36,822 nucleotides of DNA from a virus (lineage: Duplodnaviria > Caudoviricetes): positions 1-36,822 of IMG/VR virus record IMGVR_UViG_3300037419_000253; one strand, 5' to 3'. Position numbers and translations under genes: made by a program. Of the stretch, positions 2,481 to 21,520 are shown piece by piece; the stretch's first letter is position 1; every line of letters starts with the position of its first letter. A model generated the notes under the pieces. It had not been told where the DNA came from. It saw only the letters and a program-made list of their open reading frames with translations, and made no database searches.

Positions 2481-3998
2481 TTGTCAACAGAACAAGAAGA
2501 AAAAACATTGCAAAAATTCGATTTCTTAAATGAGAATGGGGAACGTTTTTCTGCATTAAATAAAGAGACAGTGAATTTTGCTAATGTTGTTAACAAGATA
2601 ATTGATAGGGCTTCATATCGTTCAAAGTCAAGATATCAAAAACATACTAAAGAAGATATCCGTAAATGGTTGGACAACCCTCAATCGTTTTCAGACAACC
2701 TAGTAATGTTATCTAATCATTACTATAATTCAAGTTCTCAATATACTAGATTAATCAATTATATGGTTAATCTATTAAGTTGGGCTTATACAATTGATGT
2801 AGTAAATATCTCTCATAAAGACATGAAATCTAAAAAAGATAAGATTGAAAAGGATTACTTTGAAGTATGTTCAATGGTAGAAAATATGAATATATCTCAT
2901 GAAATGAAAAAGGTATTACATACTGCTTTTAGAGAAGATGTATTTTTTGGAGTGGAGCATGAAACAAAAACTTCATACTACATTCAAAAGCTACCATCTA
3001 AATTTTGCTTTATCTACGGTATTGAAGATGGCTCTTTTACATTTGCATTTGATTTCTCATATTTTGATACAAATGATGTAATCAATACTTATGATGAAGA
3101 ATTTCAACGAAAATATAAAAAATATCAAGCAAACAAAAAAGAATACAGATATCAATTAATAGATTCTAGTCGTTCTATTTGTATTAAAGTTAATGAAGAA
3201 TTAGACTATATTTTGCCACCATTCTCTTCTACATTTGATAGTGCTTATGACATTGATTTGTACAAGCGTAGTCGTGATAACAAAGAGAAGCTAGGAAACT
3301 ATAAAATTTTAACTCAAAAAATTCCTGTTCGTGAAGATTCTGATTTAAATAATGACTTCATCATTGACATTGATACTGCTATGATGTTTCATAATCAAAT
3401 CGTAAAAAGTTTACCTCAAGAGATTGGATTGTTAACATCTCCAATGGAGTTACAGGAGTTTAATTTTAAAGGTGATGCAGGTGATATTGATAATGTATCG
3501 AAAGTACAAAGAGATTTTTGGGAATCGGCAGGTGTTTCACAAACATTATTCAATGCCAATGCTAATTCATCAATGTCTATGGGACTAGCTATTAAAACAG
3601 ATGAGCAAGTAGTATTTGGGGTTGCAACACAAATCGAAAGATGGCTAAATCGTAAAATCAAAAAGAGATTTAAAAACTTTAGAATCAATATTCTAGAGGT
3701 TACTAGATACAATGAAACAGAGGTAATTGATAATCTAGTTAAAACAGGAAGTGTTGGTATGCCTGTTAAAACTGCTATTGCCAGTGTATTAGGCATGAGT
3801 CCTTCAACTTTCTTAACTACCGCAGTATTGGAAAATGAAATTTTAAATTTAGATGATTTATTGAAACCATTAGTGACATCACAACAGATGACCGCATTGG
3901 ACAAACAAGAACAAGCAGGTAGACCTACTAGTGGAAAACCATTGACCGATGAAGGGCAAAAAACTAGGGAACAAAATAAAAATAAAGAAAATAAATAG
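2481..3998 (+). CDS. Portal protein
   Basis: 505-aa ORF directly after terL, TTG start with AAGGAG RBS. It has portal-like C-terminal features (AGVSQTLFN, IERWLN, terminal GRP motif with a charged tail). Confidence 0.8.
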   Translation: MSTEQEEKTLQKFDFLNENGERFSALNKETVNFANVVNKIIDRASYRSKSRYQKHTKEDIRKWLDNPQSFSDNLVMLSNHYYNSSSQYTRLINYMVNLLSWAYTIDVVNISHKDMKSKKDKIEKDYFEVCSMVENMNISHEMKKVLHTAFREDVFFGVEHETKTSYYIQKLPSKFCFIYGIEDGSFTFAFDFSYFDTNDVINTYDEEFQRKYKKYQANKKEYRYQLIDSSRSICIKVNEELDYILPPFSSTFDSAYDIDLYKRSRDNKEKLGNYKILTQKIPVREDSDLNNDFIIDIDTAMMFHNQIVKSLPQEIGLLTSPMELQEFNFKGDAGDIDNVSKVQRDFWESAGVSQTLFNANANSSMSMGLAIKTDEQVVFGVATQIERWLNRKIKKRFKNFRINILEVTRYNETEVIDNLVKTGSVGMPVKTAIASVLGMSPSTFLTTAVLENEILNLDDLLKPLVTSQQMTALDKQEQAGRPTSGKPLTDEGQKTREQNKNKENK

Positions 3999-4011
3999 AT
4001 AATAGTGTACA

Positions 4012-4062
4012 AAATAAAGGAGATTTTACTATATTATATGAAACACCAAATCTCCTTTATTT
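4012..4062. repeat. 15-bp perfect inverted repeat with 21-nt loop between portal and protease/scaffold genes
   Basis: AAATAAAGGAGATTT (4012-4026) pairs with AAATCTCCTTTATTT (4048-4062). Confidence 0.8.
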
Positions 4063-4089
4063 GCAAAAATAAGGAAAGGGGGATAAATT

Positions 4090-5343
4090 TTGAATAAAAA
4101 TATCAAAATAGAATCTAATTTTTCAAATGTTGTAAGAATGAACCCACAGTTTTCTCAAGCTAGAGTTCGTGTCTTATATACAGGAGATAATAGAAATGGC
4201 TCTCATTTTGAGAAAGCCAATGTCGAAAAAGCTATTTCAAGTATTTTCAATATTCCAATTGTGGGAGAATTTAAAGAAGATACTCAAGATTTTGGTGGTC
4301 ATGGTGGCAAAATTGAAATCACAGAAGATTCATATAAATTCATCCAAACTACCAAGCCAATAGGTGTTGTTCCCGAAAGTGCAACATTTCATTGGGAACA
4401 AGTAGAACAAAAAAATGGTGCTATGAGAGATTATCTCTACATTGAGCCTGTATATCTGTGGCATAGTCGTTATCAAGAAGAAGTGGATAAACTTTTAGAA
4501 GATGGAAGTAGTCAATCAATGGAGATTGAAGTAAATGACTATGAAATGATGGATAATGGCATGTATAATATTACAGATTTTAATTTTAGTGCCTTGTGTG
4601 TACTTGGACAATCTACCGAACCTTGTTTCGAAGATAGTAGATTTTTAGGGTACTCTCTCAATAAAGAAGAATTTTCACTTCAATTTTCAACAATGTTGAA
4701 GGAGTTAAAAGCTTCTATGGAAGTAGGTGAAACAATGAAAATCTGTGAGAAATGTGGTAAAGAATTTGATGGTGAAGTTTGTGGTTGTGAGGTTGAACCT
4801 GTTGTAGTAGATGAGCCAATCGTAGTTGAACCTGTGATTGAGGATGAGCCTGTAATTGATGAGCCTAAAGTAGAAGATGAGCCAGTTGTGGTTGATGAGC
4901 CTGTGGTTGTTGACGAACCAATTGTTGAACCAATTGATGAGCCTATCGTAGATGAGCCAGTTGTCGAAGAACCTGTGGTTGACTATCAAACATTATATGA
5001 AACTCTTAAATCTGACTATGAAGCATTAGAGGTTAAATACAACGCTTTAGAAACTTTCAAAGCGACAACTTTAAAAACACAACATGAAGCAAATGTAGTA
5101 TCACTATTAGAAAAAGATGAGTTCTCTATGTTGGAACAAGAAGATATTTCTGAAATCGTAGAAAAACAACATGATTTCTCTTTAGAAGAAATTGAAAATA
5201 AATTCTACTCTATTTTAGGTAAAAAAGTAGCACAATCTCAATCTTTCTCTAAAAACAAGAAAAAAGATACTACTGTTCAAGTTAAGTTTAGCAAAACAGA
5301 AGATAAATCTTCTGCAAAAATTTATGATAGTTTATTTGAATAA
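4090..5343 (+). CDS. Prohead protease / scaffold fusion (YonD-like)
   Basis: Lies between portal and capsid genes. The N-terminal domain has GDNRNGS, QSMEI and FSALCVLG..EPCFE motifs. The C-terminal part has an acidic DEPVV repeat and a coiled coil. Confidence 0.7.
   Translation: MNKNIKIESNFSNVVRMNPQFSQARVRVLYTGDNRNGSHFEKANVEKAISSIFNIPIVGEFKEDTQDFGGHGGKIEITEDSYKFIQTTKPIGVVPESATFHWEQVEQKNGAMRDYLYIEPVYLWHSRYQEEVDKLLEDGSSQSMEIEVNDYEMMDNGMYNITDFNFSALCVLGQSTEPCFEDSRFLGYSLNKEEFSLQFSTMLKELKASMEVGETMKICEKCGKEFDGEVCGCEVEPVVVDEPIVVEPVIEDEPVIDEPKVEDEPVVVDEPVVVDEPIVEPIDEPIVDEPVVEEPVVDYQTLYETLKSDYEALEVKYNALETFKATTLKTQHEANVVSLLEKDEFSMLEQEDISEIVEKQHDFSLEEIENKFYSILGKKVAQSQSFSKNKKKDTTVQVKFSKTEDKSSAKIYDSLFE
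4789..4983 (+). repeat. Low-complexity tandem (D/E)EP(V/I)V coding repeats
   Basis: About a dozen imperfect GATGAGCC-containing units encoding EPVVVDEPIVVEPVIEDEPVIDEP... Confidence 0.85.
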
Positions 5344-12201: not shown

Positions 12202-13179
12202 GTGGGTGAAATGAGTAAAAAACTAAAAGATATTACAGATGAAATGTGGAATGATGTTGATGAGTTTAATAAATATATTACAAATGAATTTCTTACACAA
12301 CCACATATTTCAGACCAAACAAGAAAACAATATCGTTCTGCTTTGAGACAGTTTTTTTATTGGAATAAAGTTAATAATATGAACAAGCCAATATATGAAT
12401 TAAAATTAAGAGATGGTTTAAAATATCAGACATATTTAAGTAGTTTAGGATTGAGTTCGAGTGCTATAAAATTTAAAAGGTCATCTGTAAGTAGTTTATG
12501 TGGATTTATTGAAATTTTTTATAATGATGAATATCCTTTGTTTAGAAGTATTTTTAATAAAAATATACCAAATCCTCCAAGTGTAAAAAAGAAAGAGGTA
12601 GTAGTTTTATCAAAAGAAGAGGTTGAAAAAATATCCAGTGTGCTAGAATCAAAAAAAGAGTGGCAAAAATTAGCATTATTTAAAACTCTTTACTCAACAG
12701 GTTGCAGGAGAGCAGAAGTAATTCAATTAAAAACTGAAATTATTAATTATCCAAAAAGCAAAAATAAAGATGGAGAAGAACAAAATTTCTATGTATCACA
12801 TTTTGTTAGAGGTAAAGGTAGGTCAACAGAGGGCAAACCTATTAAACTATTAATAGGAGATGATGCAATGGAATCTATTAAAAAATGGTTGAAAGAACGA
12901 GATGACGACTGCGAATATATCTTTACGAGAAAAACTAAAGATGGACATGCTCAAATTAATGTAAATACAATAAATAATTGGGTAGATGAGTTTGGAGAAA
13001 TAATTGGAAGAAAGATTCATCCACATAGTATAAGAAAATCTAGGTCAACACATATAGTTGTAGACGATGGATTAGATATTAAAGTCGCAAGTAAATTGTT
13101 AAACCATGCCGATTCTTCGACTACGGACAAGTTCTATGTAATTAGAGATGATGAAGATGAGTATGGAGATATTTTTTAA
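12202..13179 (+). CDS. Tyrosine recombinase (integrase/XerC-D family; SPbeta YomM-like position)
   Basis: Full catalytic set visible: YSTGCRRAEV (R), RGKGR (K), HPHSIRK (HxxR), LLNHADSSTTDKFY (H..Y). The start could be ATG 12211. Confidence 0.9.
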   Translation: MGEMSKKLKDITDEMWNDVDEFNKYITNEFLTQPHISDQTRKQYRSALRQFFYWNKVNNMNKPIYELKLRDGLKYQTYLSSLGLSSSAIKFKRSSVSSLCGFIEIFYNDEYPLFRSIFNKNIPNPPSVKKKEVVVLSKEEVEKISSVLESKKEWQKLALFKTLYSTGCRRAEVIQLKTEIINYPKSKNKDGEEQNFYVSHFVRGKGRSTEGKPIKLLIGDDAMESIKKWLKERDDDCEYIFTRKTKDGHAQINVNTINNWVDEFGEIIGRKIHPHSIRKSRSTHIVVDDGLDIKVASKLLNHADSSTTDKFYVIRDDEDEYGDIF

Positions 13180-13657: not shown

Positions 13658-15934
13658 ATGTCGCAAGATTTAAATATTATCGTTAAAGCAAAGGTCGATA
13701 CAACAGACCTTAATAACCAATTGAATGATGCAACTAAAGATAAACAAATTGATATAAAGGCGAAATTATCAGAGGTTGATTTATCACAATTAGACAAACA
13801 ATTAGAAAATTTTAAATTTAAGTTTACTACTGATAATATTACTAGTTTAGCTACTGCAATTAAGAAATTGTTAAAAGAGAATAAATTTGATTTAGACTTG
13901 AATGTTAAAAATATTCAAGCAATTCAAAATATTAAAAAACAAGTTTCTAATAGTGGATTACAAGGTAAATTAGGAAATGTTGATTTGGCAAATGGTTTTT
14001 CAGTTGAAGATATAAATATGGACAATCTTCAACAAAAAATGAGAAAAATCATGAAAGAGGTAGACCCTACATTCTTCAAAAAAGCTATCATCTCTAACAT
14101 TACTAATTCCAATATTGATGGAGAATTAAAAAGTTTTGTTGTTCAAGGTGAAAATGCTAGTGGTGTTGTGAAGAAATTATTCTTCAATCTTCAACAATCA
14201 GAAGAAGGTATTAAGAATTTTGCTTTAACAAATATTAATACTCTTGACAAACAACAACAACAACTTAAAAAAGCAGAAGAATTAGCAGGTAAACTTGAGA
14301 GACAATTCAAGAAACTTAATGATAACATGGGTCTTAAAATGCTTGATAGAGCAAGAGACAATGGATTAACTGTTGACAAGGTTAATGAAATTGGCAATAA
14401 GAGACAAGATGTTCGTGACAAATATCAAGCAGGTCAAGACGAAATTTCTTTATATAACAAACGTCTACAATTAATGCAACTAATTAATAAAGAAACTAGA
14501 GATTTAAATCTTTCAGAAGAAAGACGATTAGATTATCAAAAACAAATCTACAATGTAATGCGTAACCAAAAATCTGAAAAAGATAAAATTTCTCAACTAT
14601 CAAATATTAATAATGCAGTTAGTAATGAAATCAAAGCAGGAAAAGAACAAATTAATAATACACAAAAATTAGTAGAGTTAGAAACTAGAAGAAGTAATGT
14701 TGCAAAAACATTGACAGATTTAAGAAATAGTTATAACAAATCAGAATTTGGAAATGAAGAATATACTAAATTAAATAAAGAATTAGAATTACTTCAAAAG
14801 GTTACTAAATATTCTAAAGAAGCAGATATATCTTTGAAACAATTAGAATCACAGGTTAAAATAGTTCAAAACAGGCTAACAGGTGATGCTAATGTGCAAA
14901 AAAATCTTGGAGCAAAAAATGAATTAACATCTCTTTATAAACAATTAGAAGATTCAAAAAAATTGCAATATGCAACAGAAGAATTACAAAAACGATTTGA
15001 TTTTTTAGGAGTAGCAATTAAAAGAGATTTAAGCACAAGTGATATTCAAAGATATCGTAAAGAACTTCAAGAGTTAACAAAAGATATTGAGAAGGCTATT
15101 AAGAGTGCAAGTGTTACAACTCCTGTGGCAAATAAAAACAATCAAGGGTTAGTTAATGCAGTAGATAATTATAAGAGTGATAACTCATTAGAAAAACATA
15201 AGGCAGACCTAGACCAAGTTACAAAATCTTTACTAGGTCAAAAAGCAGTTATCAAAGATATCATTGTTGAAGATAGACAGTTGGATGGAATTGTAACAAA
15301 ATTCAATGCTTCCATACAAACAGGACAAAAAGATATTAAACAATATACTTATGAATTAAATCATCTAACACAAGAATTACGTGTTGTTCGTGAGCAACTA
15401 GTAAACAATCCAAATAAGAATCTAGGACTATTTGAACAACTTAAAATAGCAATGGAGCGAGTACCTGTTTGGATGATTTCTATGACCGCATTCTATGGAA
15501 CTATCAATGCACTTCGTTCTGCAATGTCTACTATTGTTGAAATTGATGGTCAAGTTACACAGATGAAGCGTGTAATGGATGCAGATACTAACTTCACAGA
15601 TATCATGAATACATCAATTGAGAGTGCAGAAAAGTTTGGGAAAACCATCACAGATGTAAATCAAGCCATGATTGAGTTTTCTAAACAAGGTTTCAAAGGT
15701 CAAGAATTAAAAGATATTGTTAATACTAGTATTCTAGCTTCTAACGTATCTGACATGTCAACCGCAGAAACATTAGAAACATTAACATCTGTAATGAACT
15801 CTTACAAAATTGAAGCAAAAGATACTATTGGTGTAATAGATAGTTTGAATCAAGTAGATAACGATTTCGCAACTAGTGTTAAAGATTTGTCATTAGGTTT
15901 AACTAAATCTAGTGCAGTAGCAAATAACTTCGGT
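13658..15934 (+). CDS. Tape measure protein, exon 1 (759 codons)
   Basis: Coiled-coil-rich N-terminus, then TMP core (VPVWMISMTAFYG, EFSKQGF, SLNQVDNDFATS) ending ...ANNFG at the 5' splice site. The unspliced frame stops at 15961. Confidence 0.9.
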
Positions 15935-16038
15935 AAAATTTTGTGCCGACCTATGAAGTGATTCATAGTGCAAAAGTTAGCCATATCGGGAAAACTCTAG
16001 AAGTAGACAATTCCGAGGAAAGACCATTAATCTTAAAA

Positions 16039-16067
16039 TTGACAAAATTGACAAAAAATAATATAAT
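16039..16067 (+). promoter_or_regulatory. Consensus sigma-A/sigma-70 promoter inside the intron
   Basis: TTGACA (16039-44), 17-nt spacer, TATAAT (16062-67); RBS GAGGTG (16080-85) before ATG 16092. Confidence 0.85.
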
Positions 16068-16091
16068 AACATATGAAAAGAGGTGAGTCAA

Positions 16092-17045
16092 ATGAGCAAA
16101 GAAAATGTTGAAGTTCAATGTCATTTATGTGGAAAATCAAAATTCGTAACACAATACAAATACAATTATAATATTTCCAAAGGTTCGAATTTTTTCTGTG
16201 ATAAATATTGTTCAAATAAATGGAGAGCAATAGAATATAATAAGAATAGAACAGATAAAAGAAAAAATACAAACTGTATTTATTGTAATAAAGAAATTTT
16301 AAAGAAAGCAAAAACCACAAAATACTGTTCAACACAATGTAAAGGTGAGCATAAAAAAGAAATTAATAGAGTAGATGTTGAATGCAGTAATTGTAATAAG
16401 ATATTTCAAAAAACAAAATTTCATGTAAATGATAGTAATAATTTTTGCACTAAAAAATGTTCATCTGAATGGAACTCTAAGCAATCAAAGAGAGTCGAAA
16501 TGACTTGTATCATTTGTAATAAAAAATATCAAGTTCAAAATAACAGACAAGATATATCTAAAGCTTGTTCGATTAAATGTAATAATACATATAAAAGTAC
16601 AATATGGTCTGTTGAGAATGTTGAATTTTTAAGACAAAACGGTGTAATATCAAGTCTAAATCAAAGCAAAGATGGAACATGGTGTGAGAATGTTATCGAA
16701 AATTATCTTAAATCATTAAACATAAAATTTGAACCACAAAAAAATATTGATGATAAATATATTGCAGATTTCTATATAGAAGATTTAAACTTAATAATAG
16801 AAGTCTATGGAGATTATTGGCATTCTAATCCATCAATATATGGAGAATCGGAAAATTTAAAACCACTCAATGACCACCAAAAGAAACAAGTTAAGAAAGA
16901 TAATAAAAAGATTGGTTATTATAAATTTAAAAAATTCTCTTATTTAATATTGTGGGAAAATGATATAGGTAAAAATTTTGATAATATTAAAGAAATAATT
17001 ATTAATAAGATTAATGGAATCCGTAACGACTATCGGAATATATGA
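16092..17045 (+). CDS. Intron-encoded homing endonuclease: four Cys4 zinc motifs plus C-terminal Vsr/DUF559-like PD-(D/E)XK nuclease
   Basis: Four CxxC...CxxxC repeats, then ADFYIEDLNLIIEVYGDYWH...KKD...LILWEND. Located in the P6 loop of the intron. Confidence 0.8.
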   Translation: MSKENVEVQCHLCGKSKFVTQYKYNYNISKGSNFFCDKYCSNKWRAIEYNKNRTDKRKNTNCIYCNKEILKKAKTTKYCSTQCKGEHKKEINRVDVECSNCNKIFQKTKFHVNDSNNFCTKKCSSEWNSKQSKRVEMTCIICNKKYQVQNNRQDISKACSIKCNNTYKSTIWSVENVEFLRQNGVISSLNQSKDGTWCENVIENYLKSLNIKFEPQKNIDDKYIADFYIEDLNLIIEVYGDYWHSNPSIYGESENLKPLNDHQKKQVKKDNKKIGYYKFKKFSYLILWENDIGKNFDNIKEIIINKINGIRNDYRNI

Positions 17046-17188
17046 GTAATTGTATATTCTTACGCTAACCCCTTCCTCCTGTCAATAGGAAGGTGAAGAT
17101 AGAGTCTGACCACACATATAACAAATGAAGTGTGTGAGATAGGCAGAAATGACCTATCCCTCTCATAGATTGAGAGAGTAACAAAGTG

Positions 17189-20100
17189 ACAGATTTAAAT
17201 CATTTAATTGGCTACATTACTGCGGTGCAATCAAGTACAAGAGAAAGTGGTACAGTCGTTGGTAACTCAATGAAAACCATTTTATCACGTATCACAACGA
17301 TTGAAGATGCAGGAAAATCTCTTAAAACTGTTGGTATAGATATTAAAGATATGACAGGTAGCGTTAGAAAAACAGATGATATTTTAGGAGATTTAGCAAA
17401 ATCTTGGAATTTCTTAACAGATTCTCAAAAACAAAATATCGCAATCAACGTAGCAGGTCGCCAACATATTACTAGATTTTTAGCGTTAATGGATAACTGG
17501 AAAATTGTAACTGATGCTACCGCTACTTCTCAACATGCACAAGGTTCTGCAATGAGAGAAAATGCTAGATACATGGATAGCATGGAAGCAAAATTAAATT
17601 CATTAAAAACTTCATGGCAAGAACTTTCATTGGCAATGGGTAAAGCAGTAATGAATGATGCTTTCTTTGGTGTAACAAGTATCCTACAAGGAATGTCTCA
17701 AGGTGCTATTTTCTTAGTTAGTAAATTTGGTTTACTTCCTAGTGTAATTGGACTTGTAGCTATAAGTTTTATCTTATTAAATAAAAAATTACAAGAGTCT
17801 ATACTTAGTACAGGAAGATATTCTTTAGCTATTGAAAATTTAAAAAGAGCAGAAAATGGTCTTGCTATTAATAACACTAGACTTGCAACATCAATAGAAA
17901 CAAAAAATGTTGCTATGCGTGGTGTATATGCTACTGTTGGAAGAACTGAAATGGCTTTCAGAGGATTAGGTTCGGTAATTGCAGGAGCAGGTCGTTCTTT
18001 AATGGCTCTAGCACCCGAAATTGCAATTGTAACAGGTCTTGGTTGGGCAATTGAAAAATTAATTGGTGCTTTTGGTAAATGGTCGGAAGAAAAAGCTAAA
18101 GATGAAAGAGAAAACAAAGCATTATCAGAAGCATATCGTAGTCATGGCAAAGATATTAGTGATTTAATTAATCAATATGATGAATTAAACAGTCGAACAG
18201 GATTATCGTCAGAGAAAGAACAAGAGAAGTTAGATATTGCAAATAAATTATCTGCATTAATGCCTTCACTTGTAAAACATACAACTGATGATGGACAAGC
18301 ACATTTATTTACTGTTGAGCAGATGAAAAAACAACTAGAATTAGCTAAACAAATTGCAGAAGTTGAAAGCAAGAAAAAAGCTAAACAAAAAGATTCTGAC
18401 ACAGGTGACGATATCAAAGCTTACAATACAAAAGCTAATCAACTAGAGGAAATGAAGAAAAAAGTTGAAGAACTTAAAGCAAACATTGAAAATCAACGAA
18501 CTCTAGGAAATACTGAATTAGTTAATGCAGGAGAAATCGAGTTATTAGAGTGGGAAGCTAAACTAATGAAACTTGAGTCTGCTACTGCAAAAGCTAAAGA
18601 TACAGTAAGCAATGATATTAGAGATTTAGTGAATAAAAGTGTTAAAGAATTAGGTAATTTTAAAGCACCAAAATCAATAGAAGAATCTATTAAAAACATG
18701 TTTACAGATGGTAAAGTAACAGGTCAAATGTTATCTGATTACAGAGGATTTGTATCTCAAATGACTACTGCCTCTCAAAAATTGCAAGATGCTTTAAACA
18801 TGAAGATTAAAGGTGATGAAGGAACTGCCGAATTCAATAAGTCAATGAAGGATAGACAAACTGCTATTCGACAAGCAACTTCTGATTTAATGGGTCTACA
18901 TGAAAGTTATGGAGTTTCTGTATCTGACATTTGGGCTTTAACTGATTCAGTTAAAAAACAAAATGATGAAGTAAAAAATACAGGAGATGGCATTGTCCAC
19001 TATAACTCTAGTTTAGATGAGTTAGATACTATCACAACTACTACTTCTCAAAACATTGAATTGATAACAAATGCAATTGCAGAATATAATGCTACTCAAA
19101 AATTAAGCAAAAAGACAGTAGACGACATAATTCAACAATATCCTCAATTAGAAAAATATCAAAACAATGAGAAGCAATTGGTTAAAGAAATCACTAAATT
19201 ACGTGATGGTGAAGCAGAGGCAGAAAGACGAGCATTTAACTTAAAATTAGCATATAATAATAATTATATCAAGAATTTAGCAAGTCTTTATGGTGTTGAA
19301 ATAAATAATTGGAAAAATAAAGCACAAGCACAGTTACAAATTGAAAACTCATTAATTCAAGCATTAGGAACAAACTGGAATAAGTTTTTCAATGCGAACC
19401 AAGATAAGTTGACAGAGCAAGGTAGATATGCTATGAAACTTGCAAAAATTGGAGCAGAAGATGGTTCTAAGTCTGCACAAGGATTTATTGGTGGTATTAA
19501 TGGTGTTTTAACAGGTCAATACAAACAGGCTTTAGACTTAGTTGACCAAATTCAATATACAACTGCTAACTTTATTAAACCTGCTACACAATCTTATGAG
19601 ACTAAACCAACGAAAACTTCAAAACCTAAAAAATCAAGTTCATCATCTTCTGATAAAGACCCTACTAAGTTAAACCAAACTGCTAATCAAGTTGCAATTG
19701 ACAGATTAAATTCTGAAATTGCAGTAATCGAAAAGAAGAATGAGTTACTTGATAAAGGGTCTAAAGCATATCGTGATAATCTACTTGTTATTATTGCTAA
19801 AGAAAAAGAATTACAGAAAAGATATACAACAGAACAAAATGACATTCAAAAGAAAATCAATTCTGATAATTCAAAAATCAAAAGTTTTGAAAAAGGTGGA
19901 GTATCTAAGAAGGAACTTGATTCATACAATAAATTAAAAAATGAAGTGGCAGACCTAACTAAAAAATTAGGAGAAGCTAAAGTAAATCTTCAAGATACTA
20001 CAAATGACATTGCTAAAAATTATGCTTCTATCAATGAATCTTTAATAGCAGGAATTAACTCTTTACTTGATTCGACTGTTCAAAAATACAACAATATATC

Positions 20101-21520
20101 TGATATGTTATCAAAATTAGACAAAGATATTTCTGTTGCACAAGCTTATGACAAAGATGGTTCTTCAACATCAACAGTTATAGCAAAAGAACAAGAAAAG
20201 ATTAAATTATTAAAGATACAACAAGGTTTGGTTGCTCAAGATATTGCAACATTACAAAAAAGTTTAAATTCTAATAAAAATAATAAAGTAATTACAGAAC
20301 AAGTTAATGCATTATTAAAAGAAAAATTAGCATTACAAGATGATGTAAATGTTGCTCTTGCTCAAGAAAGAAAAAATTTAAATGATATTCGTAGCGATAT
20401 TGCAGACAAAATTATTGAAGCAGAGAAAAAATATTATGAGCAAAAAAGAGATTCTGAATTAAAAGCAATTGATGATTCAATTGAAGCATATGAGAAAGAA
20501 TACACTATTAAGATGAAAGGTTATGATGACCAACTTAAAGCTATTGACGATATCTATAATGCTCAATTGAAAAGTATTCGTGATACAAAAGATAAAGATG
20601 ATTATAATCGTAATCTACAAAAATCACAAGATGAAGCACAAGCTATCCAAAATAAAATAAATGCTCTATCATTAGATGACTCTATGGAAGCAAAAGCTAA
20701 AAAAGAGGAACTTGCTAAACAATTAGCAGATAAGCAAATGGAAATAGAAGATATGGTAAGAGAACACAATTACCAACTTCAAGAAAATGCTATCAATGAT
20801 AGTAAGGATGCAGATGAAAAAGCACTTCAAGGTAAAAAAGATGCTCTAGATAAAGAGAAAGATGAATTTGAACAATCACAAGACGATAAGCGTAAAGCAA
20901 TTGAAAAAATGTATGATGACATTTTAAATAATGAATTATTTTGGAAACAAAAACATGATAATATTGTACAAGGTGCTTTAAGTGATGATATTAGTAAAAT
21001 GCAAGAATTCGTCAAAGATGTTCAAGGTCATATGGAGAATCTTGGAACAGTTATTCAAAATAACTTAGTTGCTAATTTGACAGACGCTTTTAATCTATTA
21101 AAACAAATTAGTGATATTCCATTACCATCATTATCAGATTATACAGATAGTGACTACACTCACTCTCAAATTAAAGATAATGTTGTCTCTGCTAAAGACA
21201 GAGGTGGAACTATAAATAAATCGGCTTATGTTAGTTTGGATACAGGTGGTCATACAGGAAACTTTGATGGTGGTAAATTAGCACTTCTCCATGAAAAAGA
21301 GTTAGTCCTTAACAAAATGGATACTTCAAACATCTTGACAGTTGTTTCTATGGTTCGTGATTTATTTAGTGGTAAAGCAACTCAAAACAATAATCCTTCT
21401 TCTTCTGATAACAGACCAATACAAATTATCATTGATAAAATGTATGGAACACAGAAAGATATCGACAACACATTGGATTTAATGGAAAAAGGATTGAAGT
21501 CTAGAGGATTGGTTAAATAA
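17189..21520 (+). CDS. Tape measure protein, exon 2 (1443 aa; spliced product about 2202 aa)
   Basis: Resumes the TMP core (TDLNHLIGYITAVQSSTRESGTVVGNSMKTILSRI), then a hydrophobic segment, long coiled coils and a C-terminal DTGGHTG..LHEKELVLN motif. Confidence 0.9.
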   Translation, partial: TDLNHLIGYITAVQSSTRESGTVVGNSMKTILSRITTIEDAGKSLKTVGIDIKDMTGSVRKTDDILGDLAKSWNFLTDSQKQNIAINVAGRQHITRFLALMDNWKIVTDATATSQHAQGSAMRENARYMDSMEAKLNSLKTSWQELSLAMGKAVMNDAFFGVTSILQGMSQGAIFLVSKFGLLPSVIGLVAISFILLNKKLQESILSTGRYSLAIENLKRAENGLAINNTRLATSIETKNVAMRGVYATVGRTEMAFRGLGSVIAGAGRSLMALAPEIAIVTGLGWAIEKLIGAFGKWSEEKAKDERENKALSEAYRSHGKDISDLINQYDELNSRTGLSSEKEQEKLDIANKLSALMPSLVKHTTDDGQAHLFTVEQMKKQLELAKQIAEVESKKKAKQKDSDTGDDIKAYNTKANQLEEMKKKVEELKANIENQRTLGNTELVNAGEIELLEWEAKLMKLESATAKAKDTVSNDIRDLVNKSVKELGNFKAPKSIEESIKNMFTDGKVTGQMLSDYRGFVSQMTTASQKLQDALNMKIKGDEGTAEFNKSMKDRQTAIRQATSDLMGLHESYGVSVSDIWALTDSVKKQNDEVKNTGDGIVHYNSSLDELDTITTTTSQNIELITNAIAEYNATQKLSKKTVDDIIQQYPQLEKYQNNEKQLVKEITKLRDGEAEAERRAFNLKLAYNNNYIKNLASLYGVEINNWKNKAQAQLQIENSLIQALGTNWNKFFNANQDKLTEQGRYAMKLAKIGAEDGSKSAQGFIGGINGVLTGQYKQALDLVDQIQYTTANFIKPATQSYETKPTKTSKPKKSSSSSSDKDPTKLNQTANQVAIDRLNSEIAVIEKKNELLDKGSKAYRDNLLVIIAKEKELQKRYTTEQNDIQKKINSDNSKIKSFEKGGVSKKELDSYNKLKNEVADLTKKLGEAKVNLQDTTNDIAKNYASINESLIAGINSLLDSTVQKYNNISDMLSKLDKDISVAQAYDKDGSSTSTVIAKEQEKIKLLKIQQGLVAQDIATLQKSLNSNKNNKVITEQVNALLKEKLALQDDVNVALAQERKNLNDIRSDIADKIIEAEKKYYEQKRDSELKAIDDSIEAYEKEYTIKMKGYDDQLKAIDDIYNAQLKSIRDTKDKDDYNRNLQKSQDEAQAIQNKINALSLDDSMEAKAKKEELAKQLADKQMEIEDMVREHNYQLQENAINDSKDADEKALQGKKDALDKEKDEFEQSQDDKRKAIEKMYDDILNNELFWKQKHDNIVQGALSDDISKMQEFVKDVQGHMENLGTVIQNNLVANLTDAFNLLKQISDIPLPSLSDYTDSDYTHSQIKDNVVSAKDRGGTINKSAYVSLDTGGHTGNFDGGKLALLHEKELVLNKMDTSNILTVVSMVRDLFSGKATQNNNPSSSDNRPIQIIIDKMYGTQKDIDNTLDLMEKGLKSRGLVK

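Follow-up and report, generated by a model that had tools for sequence, protein, structure and literature searches.

A group I intron with a predicted zinc-module EDxHD endonuclease in the tape measure protein gene of a large siphophage

The tape measure protein (TMP) gene carried on a viral contig of 36,822 nt (IMG/VR record IMGVR_UViG_3300037419_000253; this whole stretch of DNA is referred to as the window) is interrupted by a group I intron. Judged from its sequence, the intron very probably splices itself out between codons 759 and 760, restoring a TMP of 2,202 aa, and is very probably spread by its own zinc-finger EDxHD endonuclease. The best reading of the element is a mobile selfish intron rather than a device for metering TMP. 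A first-pass annotation of the window had already proposed a group I intron in the TMP gene, and the complete core, the exon register and the orthologous introns agree with it; its account of the ribozyme held throughout, but the 317-aa open reading frame (ORF; 16092-17045) and the internal promoter had been omitted. The coordinates of all features are compiled in Table 1.

Table 1. Features of the interrupted TMP gene and its intron (window coordinates)
Feature	Position	Strand	Description and evidence
TMP exon 1	13658..15934	+	759 codons, ends AAC TTC GGT; PF10145 model 2-111; phrog_4211 TMP
Group I intron	15935..17188	+	1,254 nt, between codons 759/760; register, homologues, fold, orthologues L027 and L109
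P1	15930-34/15945-49	+	exon UCGGU with intron GCCGA; U15934.G15945 at 5' splice site
P10	15940-44/17189-93	+	internal guide UUUGU with exon 2; 5 pairs
P2	15951-68	+	hairpin, GUGA tetraloop
5' half of core	15976..16034	+	P3 5' strand, J3/4, P4, P5, P6 5' strand, P6a 5' strand
P3	15976-81/17064-69	+	located in core fold
P4	15986-89/16013-16	+	located in core fold
P6a	16024-34/17007-17	+	11 bp, closes loop L6a
Sigma-A/sigma-70 consensus promoter (predicted)	16039..16067	+	TTGACA-17-TATAAT, 12/12, inside L6a
Ribosome-binding site	16080..16085	+	GAGGTG, 6 nt upstream of ATG 16092
Predicted homing endonuclease ORF	16092..17045	+	317 aa, loop L6a; DUF559, PDB 3R3P profile and Foldseek
3' half of core	17007..17188	+	P6a and P6 3' strands, J6/7 GUA, P7, P7.1
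3' half of core (continued)	17007..17188	+	P3 3' strand, P8, J8/7 AAGAUA, P9, P9.1, P9.2, terminal G17188
P7	17028-32/17102-06	+	bulged C17027; outer pair A.G
P7.1	17036-59	+	extension between P7 and P3
P8	17071-93	+	located in core fold
P9, P9.1, P9.2	17111-76	+	region z -4.6
TMP exon 2	17189..21520	+	1,443 codons and stop, begins ACA GAT TTA; Pfam, PHROG, GenBank homologues

The window spans the structural genes of a large siphophage, among which terminase, portal, TMP, Dit, tail spikes and a YomG-type tail protein were recognized by Pfam and PHROG profiles. Among GenBank phage TMPs the nearest come from Bacillus phages, which account for 82 of 125 records and include Thrax2, Kirov, phi3T and SPbeta relatives, and the window DNA was matched in soil and rhizosphere metagenome runs; from this TMP kinship and these runs a Bacillaceae-like host and an SPbeta-like layout are inferred. 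No RNA run was found among the sequencing runs matching the window DNA. A tyrosine-integrase-family gene (12202-13179) is located amid the virion genes, two genes upstream of the TMP gene, and an integrase-family neighbour near TMP is also present at loci L006, L013, L109, L111 and L112. The TMP ORFs on either side of the intron span 13658-15961 and 17186-21520; gene callers start the second at an in-frame GTG at 17186 and give a product of 1,444 aa. The expectation that automated annotation would call two TMP fragments proved true here, with a hypothetical protein in addition, and likewise in the GenBank phage MaeS.

Deletion of 15935-17188 reproduces the proposed in-frame join with one stop, the 2,202-aa TMP and the junction NNFG/TDLNHLIGY (a slash marks splice points here and below). 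The open frame is not decisive alone; because many other U/G joins nearby likewise keep the frame, it is the register of the joined protein that proves the splice position. On the joined TMP, the PF10145 match reaches model position 111 at residue 759 and, seven residues on, continues from 118, and phrog_4211 advances from model position 746 to 749 over three residues; the break thus falls in the middle of a conserved TMP domain (PF10145). The 11 top-scoring full-length homologues (41-46% identity) have no gap within 15 residues on either side of the join, and among all 52 homologues spanning it 25 align without a gap and the 27 with a gap are distant (30-38%), so that the homologue register predicted at the join is borne out by the best relatives. 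The suggested search for intronless alleles of the joined exons was productive as well: in the best 80 of 385 related IMG/VR TMP loci, near-duplicates included, 71 are unbroken, all 71 in register with [FY]G/[VA] at the join, and seven are broken, beyond the phage's own two copies. For TMP loci in genomes, 18 of 22 are unbroken at the join, three are broken and one is partial.

The first residue of exon 2 is Thr (ACA, 17189-17191), which occurs in none of the 71 intronless alleles (V in 64, A in 7). This ACA codon pairs fully with the intron guide, and codon and guide may be co-adapted. No close intronless allele was found among the IMG/VR TMP loci, the best intronless junction matching only 32 of 48 nt; viral contigs contained no close intronless relative past the phage's two copies, and metagenome contigs gave one distant locus. 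Contigs of four DNA sequencing runs, aligned over the join, showed no intronless joint; two of these runs had been picked for a partial word share with the window, which reflects low coverage.

All helices named in the first-pass annotation are present in the intron. The ORF-less core folds at -86.9 kcal/mol compared to -58.6 +/- 4.5 kcal/mol for shuffled sequences (z -6.3; 0/100 shuffles as good), and the P1 and P2 region reaches z -4.1. Free folding of the ORF-less core recovers every located helix except P10 and the P7 pseudoknot. Moreover, compensatory changes across the ORF of about 1 kb were seen in the 10 introns that could be parsed out of 14: P3, P4 and P7 covary as compensating pairs with strands up to 1.2 kb apart. 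P3 varies at six of six pairs yet stays paired among the parsed introns, the only mismatches coming from three alignment rows that are one base out of register; pair 3 is GC or AT in P4 and CG or GC in P7. The outer P7 pair is A.G, a non-Watson-Crick pair, in all three introns at site 759 (window, L027, L109). Subgroup IA2 is characterized by a P7.1-type extension between P7 and P3 and by a simple P5. P7.1 comprises 31 nt in the window intron and is missing from four of the 10 parsed relatives. With the U.G pair in P1, the terminal G, the core domains, the exon register and P10, the element is, on its sequence features, a group I intron.

The anticipated match to the Rfam covariance model RF00028 did not materialize. 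No Rfam model matched at gathering score in the window and no group I match was obtained over 15700-17400; RF00028 on the 3' half scored 13.5 bits (E 0.27) against a gathering threshold of 50 bits. This is a poor test, as two ORF-less relatives (L007 and L012) likewise gave no Rfam group I match, and for that reason RF00028 is insensitive to this intron lineage. Partial matches have been described for ORF-split phage introns in the available text of PMC11878797. A profile built from seven public phage introns, a training set picked by similarity and thereby biased, matched in the window only 17016-17161 (E 6e-4) and 15969-16029 (E 2.3).

Independent support for the splice sites comes from two distant phages, L027 (TFG/VSLEE) and L109 (TFG/VSMEE), that carry orthologous introns at this codon, the cores being 76% and 73% identical to that of the window, respectively. 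Both retain P1 including its U.G pair. The guide of L027 has changed along with exon 2 (ACAU/GUGU compared to UUUGU/ACAGA in the window), amounting to four co-varied P10 pairs; in L109 no P10 adjoining P1 was found, at best three pairs further off. At the 3' end, G17188 aligns with the final G (28,450) of the BAKA tail intron, and an unrelated contig present in all four DNA runs matches 17136-17188 and diverges right after G17188 into another gene. The predicted splice sites 15935 and 17188 were thus confirmed to the nucleotide, by register with 71 of 71 unbroken alleles and, for 17188, by alignment with the BAKA site, which is proven by RT-PCR. L027 carries a mere remnant of the nuclease, which is the expected end of a homing cycle.

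The 317-aa ORF takes up three quarters of the intron, and its final 13 codons cross P6a, P6, P7 and P7.1. Four CxxC...CxxxC (Cys4) modules occupy nuclease residues 10-163, with 16 of 16 cysteines present, and the C-terminus is an EDxHD/Vsr-like domain. The best profile match is PDB 3R3P (I-Bth0305I; E 7.4e-9), the AlphaFold model has a pLDDT of 94.6, and Foldseek places 3R3P at ranks 1-2 for this model with a target TM of 0.78-0.79. With single-sequence input the PDB search gave no match and the model a pLDDT of 35.8; the alignment-based versions succeeded. The catalytic residues E199, D226, H244 and D270 match the corresponding positions of 3R3P; among 66 nuclease homologues D226, H244 and D270 are invariant and E199 and E237 nearly so. 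A Pfam search of the nuclease found no NUMOD match, the four Cys4 modules standing instead, and its relatives show a zf-FCS-like domain. The protein is therefore predicted, from its profile and model, to be a variant architecture of the EDxHD family; no characterized member with zinc modules was found in the literature searched, as far as the texts of the sources were available.

The five best full-length IMG/VR homologues of the nuclease (L109, L110, L111, L112 and L114; the ranking leaves out the phage's own copies and L113) all lie within TMP introns. The family is large, with 476 representatives at E 1e-10 or better and matches in 26 of 401 genomes, and is not confined to TMP. A TMP-specific family was considered and rejected, as distant members are found in a chromosomal ribonucleotide-reductase gene or free-standing in Bacillales genomes. 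In nine Bacillales loci (L291-L298 and L301) related EDxHD genes break this chromosomal reductase gene, which is presumably nrdJ-like, at one common site.

A perfect promoter such as the one preceding the nuclease would be expected by chance at about 6e-5 in that spacer. The window holds just one other 12/12 sigma-A consensus (2487-2459, minus strand), which is situated at the portal start codon and runs antisense into the terminase gene. Such a promoter is lacking from seven of eight scanned L6a leaders of related introns. No hairpin hiding the ribosome-binding site of the nuclease was found (z 0.87 and 0.14). An autorepression operator was also considered and rejected: identity between junction and promoter is at best 14/20, a level also attained by 104 of the 200 random exon fragments compared.

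The following course of events is proposed. Ribosomes on exon 1 would run into the intron for 27 nt and stop ahead of the core, at the in-frame TGA seen in P2 (15959-15961). By group I chemistry, a guanosine held in P7 would attack after U15934, which is held in P1, and exon 1 would next attack after G17188, aligned by P10. The nuclease gene would be transcribed from its own predicted sigma-A-type promoter in L6a, separately from the tail operon. By analogy with I-Bth0305I, the nuclease would cut the unbroken junction in a related phage sharing the host cell, the four zinc modules binding the flanking DNA, and repair would copy the intron in. By analogy with T4 td, translation of the nuclease from the unspliced RNA would compete with splicing because the ORF ends inside P7/P7.1; this would be a cost and not a function. 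The intron is most likely close to neutral for the phage.

Whether the element still homes bears on this proposal. There is some, rather small, chance that the intron splices while its nuclease has lost the ability to home and the element is passively inherited; nuclease decay is common in the family (remnants in L027 and L036), and no close intronless allele, the expected nuclease target, was found. What speaks for a functional enzyme is that the ORF is intact, with none of the 16 module cysteines or the catalytic residues lost, and that it has the perfect promoter and the ribosome-binding site.

The first-pass annotation had further suggested that tail assembly depends on splicing, which could restrict how much TMP is made, or when. 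The dependence on splicing stands in so far as, given the intron in the gene, full-length TMP requires splicing; a role in dose or timing gained no support. That splicing is an adaptive control on TMP amount or timing appears quite unlikely. The majority of related loci are unbroken at the join (71 of 80 in viral contigs, 18 of 22 in genomes), the introns sit at many codons and are of differing types, which fits the targeting of conserved sequence and not a kept control, and late-gene introns tested elsewhere splice efficiently (PMC3706429, as far as its text was available). The homing-type nuclease and its loss in L027 are traits of a selfish intron. These observations outweigh the facts that TMP is essential, that its domain is repeatedly invaded, and that translation of the nuclease ORF, which runs into the core, could tune splicing as described for T4 td in the available text of PMC2988022.

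Very unlikely is a lack of splicing, with TMP split into two separately made proteins and exon 2 translated from GTG 17186. The in-frame GTG, the 1,444-aa called product and the internal promoter reading into exon 2 would permit it, but the ribozyme is conserved over its full extent, compensatory changes included, the sole ribosome-site-like sequence (GAGAG) is inside the P9.2 stem, and the break lies mid-domain. That the window, a metagenomic contig, contains an assembly artefact or a dead prophage remnant is scarcely credible, as two IMG/VR contigs, possibly from the source sample, are identical over 8,401 nt, two runs, again possibly the source sample, span the stretch in a single contig without differences, and orthologous introns exist in distant phages.

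The preferred reading of a mobile selfish intron is placed in a wider context by the remaining TMP loci. Group I-like introns, related or of other kinds, break the TMP domain at nine inspected positions, namely the L006/L013 site, the L007/L012 site and approximately residues 693, 734, 735, 759, 785, 850 and 856 in window TMP numbering; breaks in L186 and L200 are not counted among these nine. The TMP gene of L109 alone has three breaks. Full nucleases of the same build occur at TMP sites 693, 734, 759 and 785, and remnants in L027 and L036. The nucleases tend to group by site below firm support (site pairs 85/79 and 88/91), one of nine inner branches of the tree being firmly supported, and the two site-759 nucleases are each other's best match; this is suggestive of nuclease lineages that track their own insertion codon. 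A tentative and rather doubtful extension would be that the SPbeta-like TMP domain is an intron hot spot, where arrays of 3-5 zinc modules would retarget the enzymes as natural modular phage zinc-finger nucleases. A second DNA pattern search returned 15 matches, of which three were known introns and the other 12, upon inspection, chance.

Two further introns were noted. Phage MaeS (L001, MT362618) has an unannotated group I intron in its TMP gene (2970-4275), which encodes a nuclease of this kind and lies 25 codons upstream of the window site; GenBank lists four hypothetical proteins there, and its TMP resembles those of Bacillus phages, the stated host being Microcystis. On the minus strand of L009 (IMGVR_UViG_3300021400_000138, about 1620-2575) a related group I intron lies in an unnamed gene and has its nuclease replaced by sigma-A-like promoter matches, a short ORF and a PemK/MazF-like ORF (PF02452, E 6.7e-5), a cargo that is likely a toxin-antitoxin pair.

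Split annotation into two TMP fragments and a hypothetical protein leads to wrong tail-length estimates and gene counts for such phages, and Rfam overlooks the intron lineage. Neighbouring sites that each carry a related nuclease offer a test system for the change of homing endonuclease targets. The known picture of phage introns and of tail assembly is unchanged; the nuclease family and the candidate TMP hot spot are the parts most worth following.

Compared to known systems, the rarity of such introns implied by the first-pass annotation was overstated, since late-gene introns of B. cereus prophages, ICP1 and cluster J mycobacteriophages are published, as far as these sources were available. 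Tourasse and Kolsto (2008, PMC2504315) describe, in the available text, group I introns at three TMP sites in B. cereus-group prophages and also list a Lactobacillus phage TMP intron. Their TMP-IVS1, IVS2 and IVS3a/b resemble the window intron in their PF10145 location, early in-frame stop and gain or loss of nucleases. IVS3b on pBWB404 (L208, 28555-28800) even shares the junction TTCGGT/ACA and the 9-nt guide TTGTGCCGA, which is either convergence or a shared guide; its host TMP belongs to a remote family, is barely alignable to the window TMP and is interrupted at a different site. In PF10145 model positions, IVS3 lies at about 201 and another B. cereus site at about 118-131, in contrast to 111 for the window intron, which sets the window site apart from the two mapped sites out of the three published. 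The only B. cereus TMP nuclease reported in the available part of PMC2504315 is an H-N-H enzyme, unlike the EDxHD enzyme of the window. Of 80 TMP loci in B. cereus-type prophages (L209-L288), 37 carry an IVS3-type intron start, which makes this a common site. The TMP group I introns of phages 11143 and BMBtp13 (L317 and L318) are annotated merely as separate TMP pieces; BMBtp13 TMP has two introns, the second with an HNH gene.

The TMP transcript of ICP1 contains three introns whose splicing was demonstrated by RNA-seq and RT-PCR (Barth et al. 2023, PMC10448857, available text). ICP1 resembles the intron family described here in having several introns in one TMP gene and variable nuclease content, and differs as a Vibrio myophage with HNH-3 nucleases and three introns. 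According to the accessible parts of PMC3706429 (Pope et al. 2013), the capsid and tail introns of cluster J mycobacteriophages splice efficiently, and splicing of the BAKA tail intron was shown by RT-PCR. The BAKA/Optimus intron also interrupts a late tail gene and has the same sequence from P9.1 to the end with the same 3' G column; unlike the window intron, it comprises 265 nt without a nuclease, in a mycobacteriophage minor tail gene.

As far as described in the available text of PMC3239194 (PDB 3R3P), I-Bth0305I is likewise intron-encoded and from a Bacillus phage (recA group I intron of 0305phi8-36), and has the same Vsr-like EDxHD C-terminus with aligned catalytic residues. It carries two NUMOD2 repeats and is encoded in P5 of the recA intron, whereas the window enzyme has four Cys4 modules and is encoded in L6a of a TMP intron. 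The specificity of I-Bth0305I is reported to lie with its nuclease domain. A related EDxHD outgroup with CapR-like repeats is mentioned in the available text of PMC12350094. The T4 td intron with I-TevI (PMC2988022, available text) shares the loop nuclease, the internal promoter and an ORF 3' end over the core, an overlap that makes nuclease translation compete with splicing in T4; it differs in its GIY-YIG nuclease, phage late promoter and control by hairpin and operator, neither of which was found in the window intron. For introns in SPbeta-type TMPs no publication was found in the literature searched, as far as texts were available. TMP group I introns as such are already published; as far as the searches reach, what is new is the insertion site, the SPbeta-type TMP host and an intron family at at least nine positions in one TMP domain.
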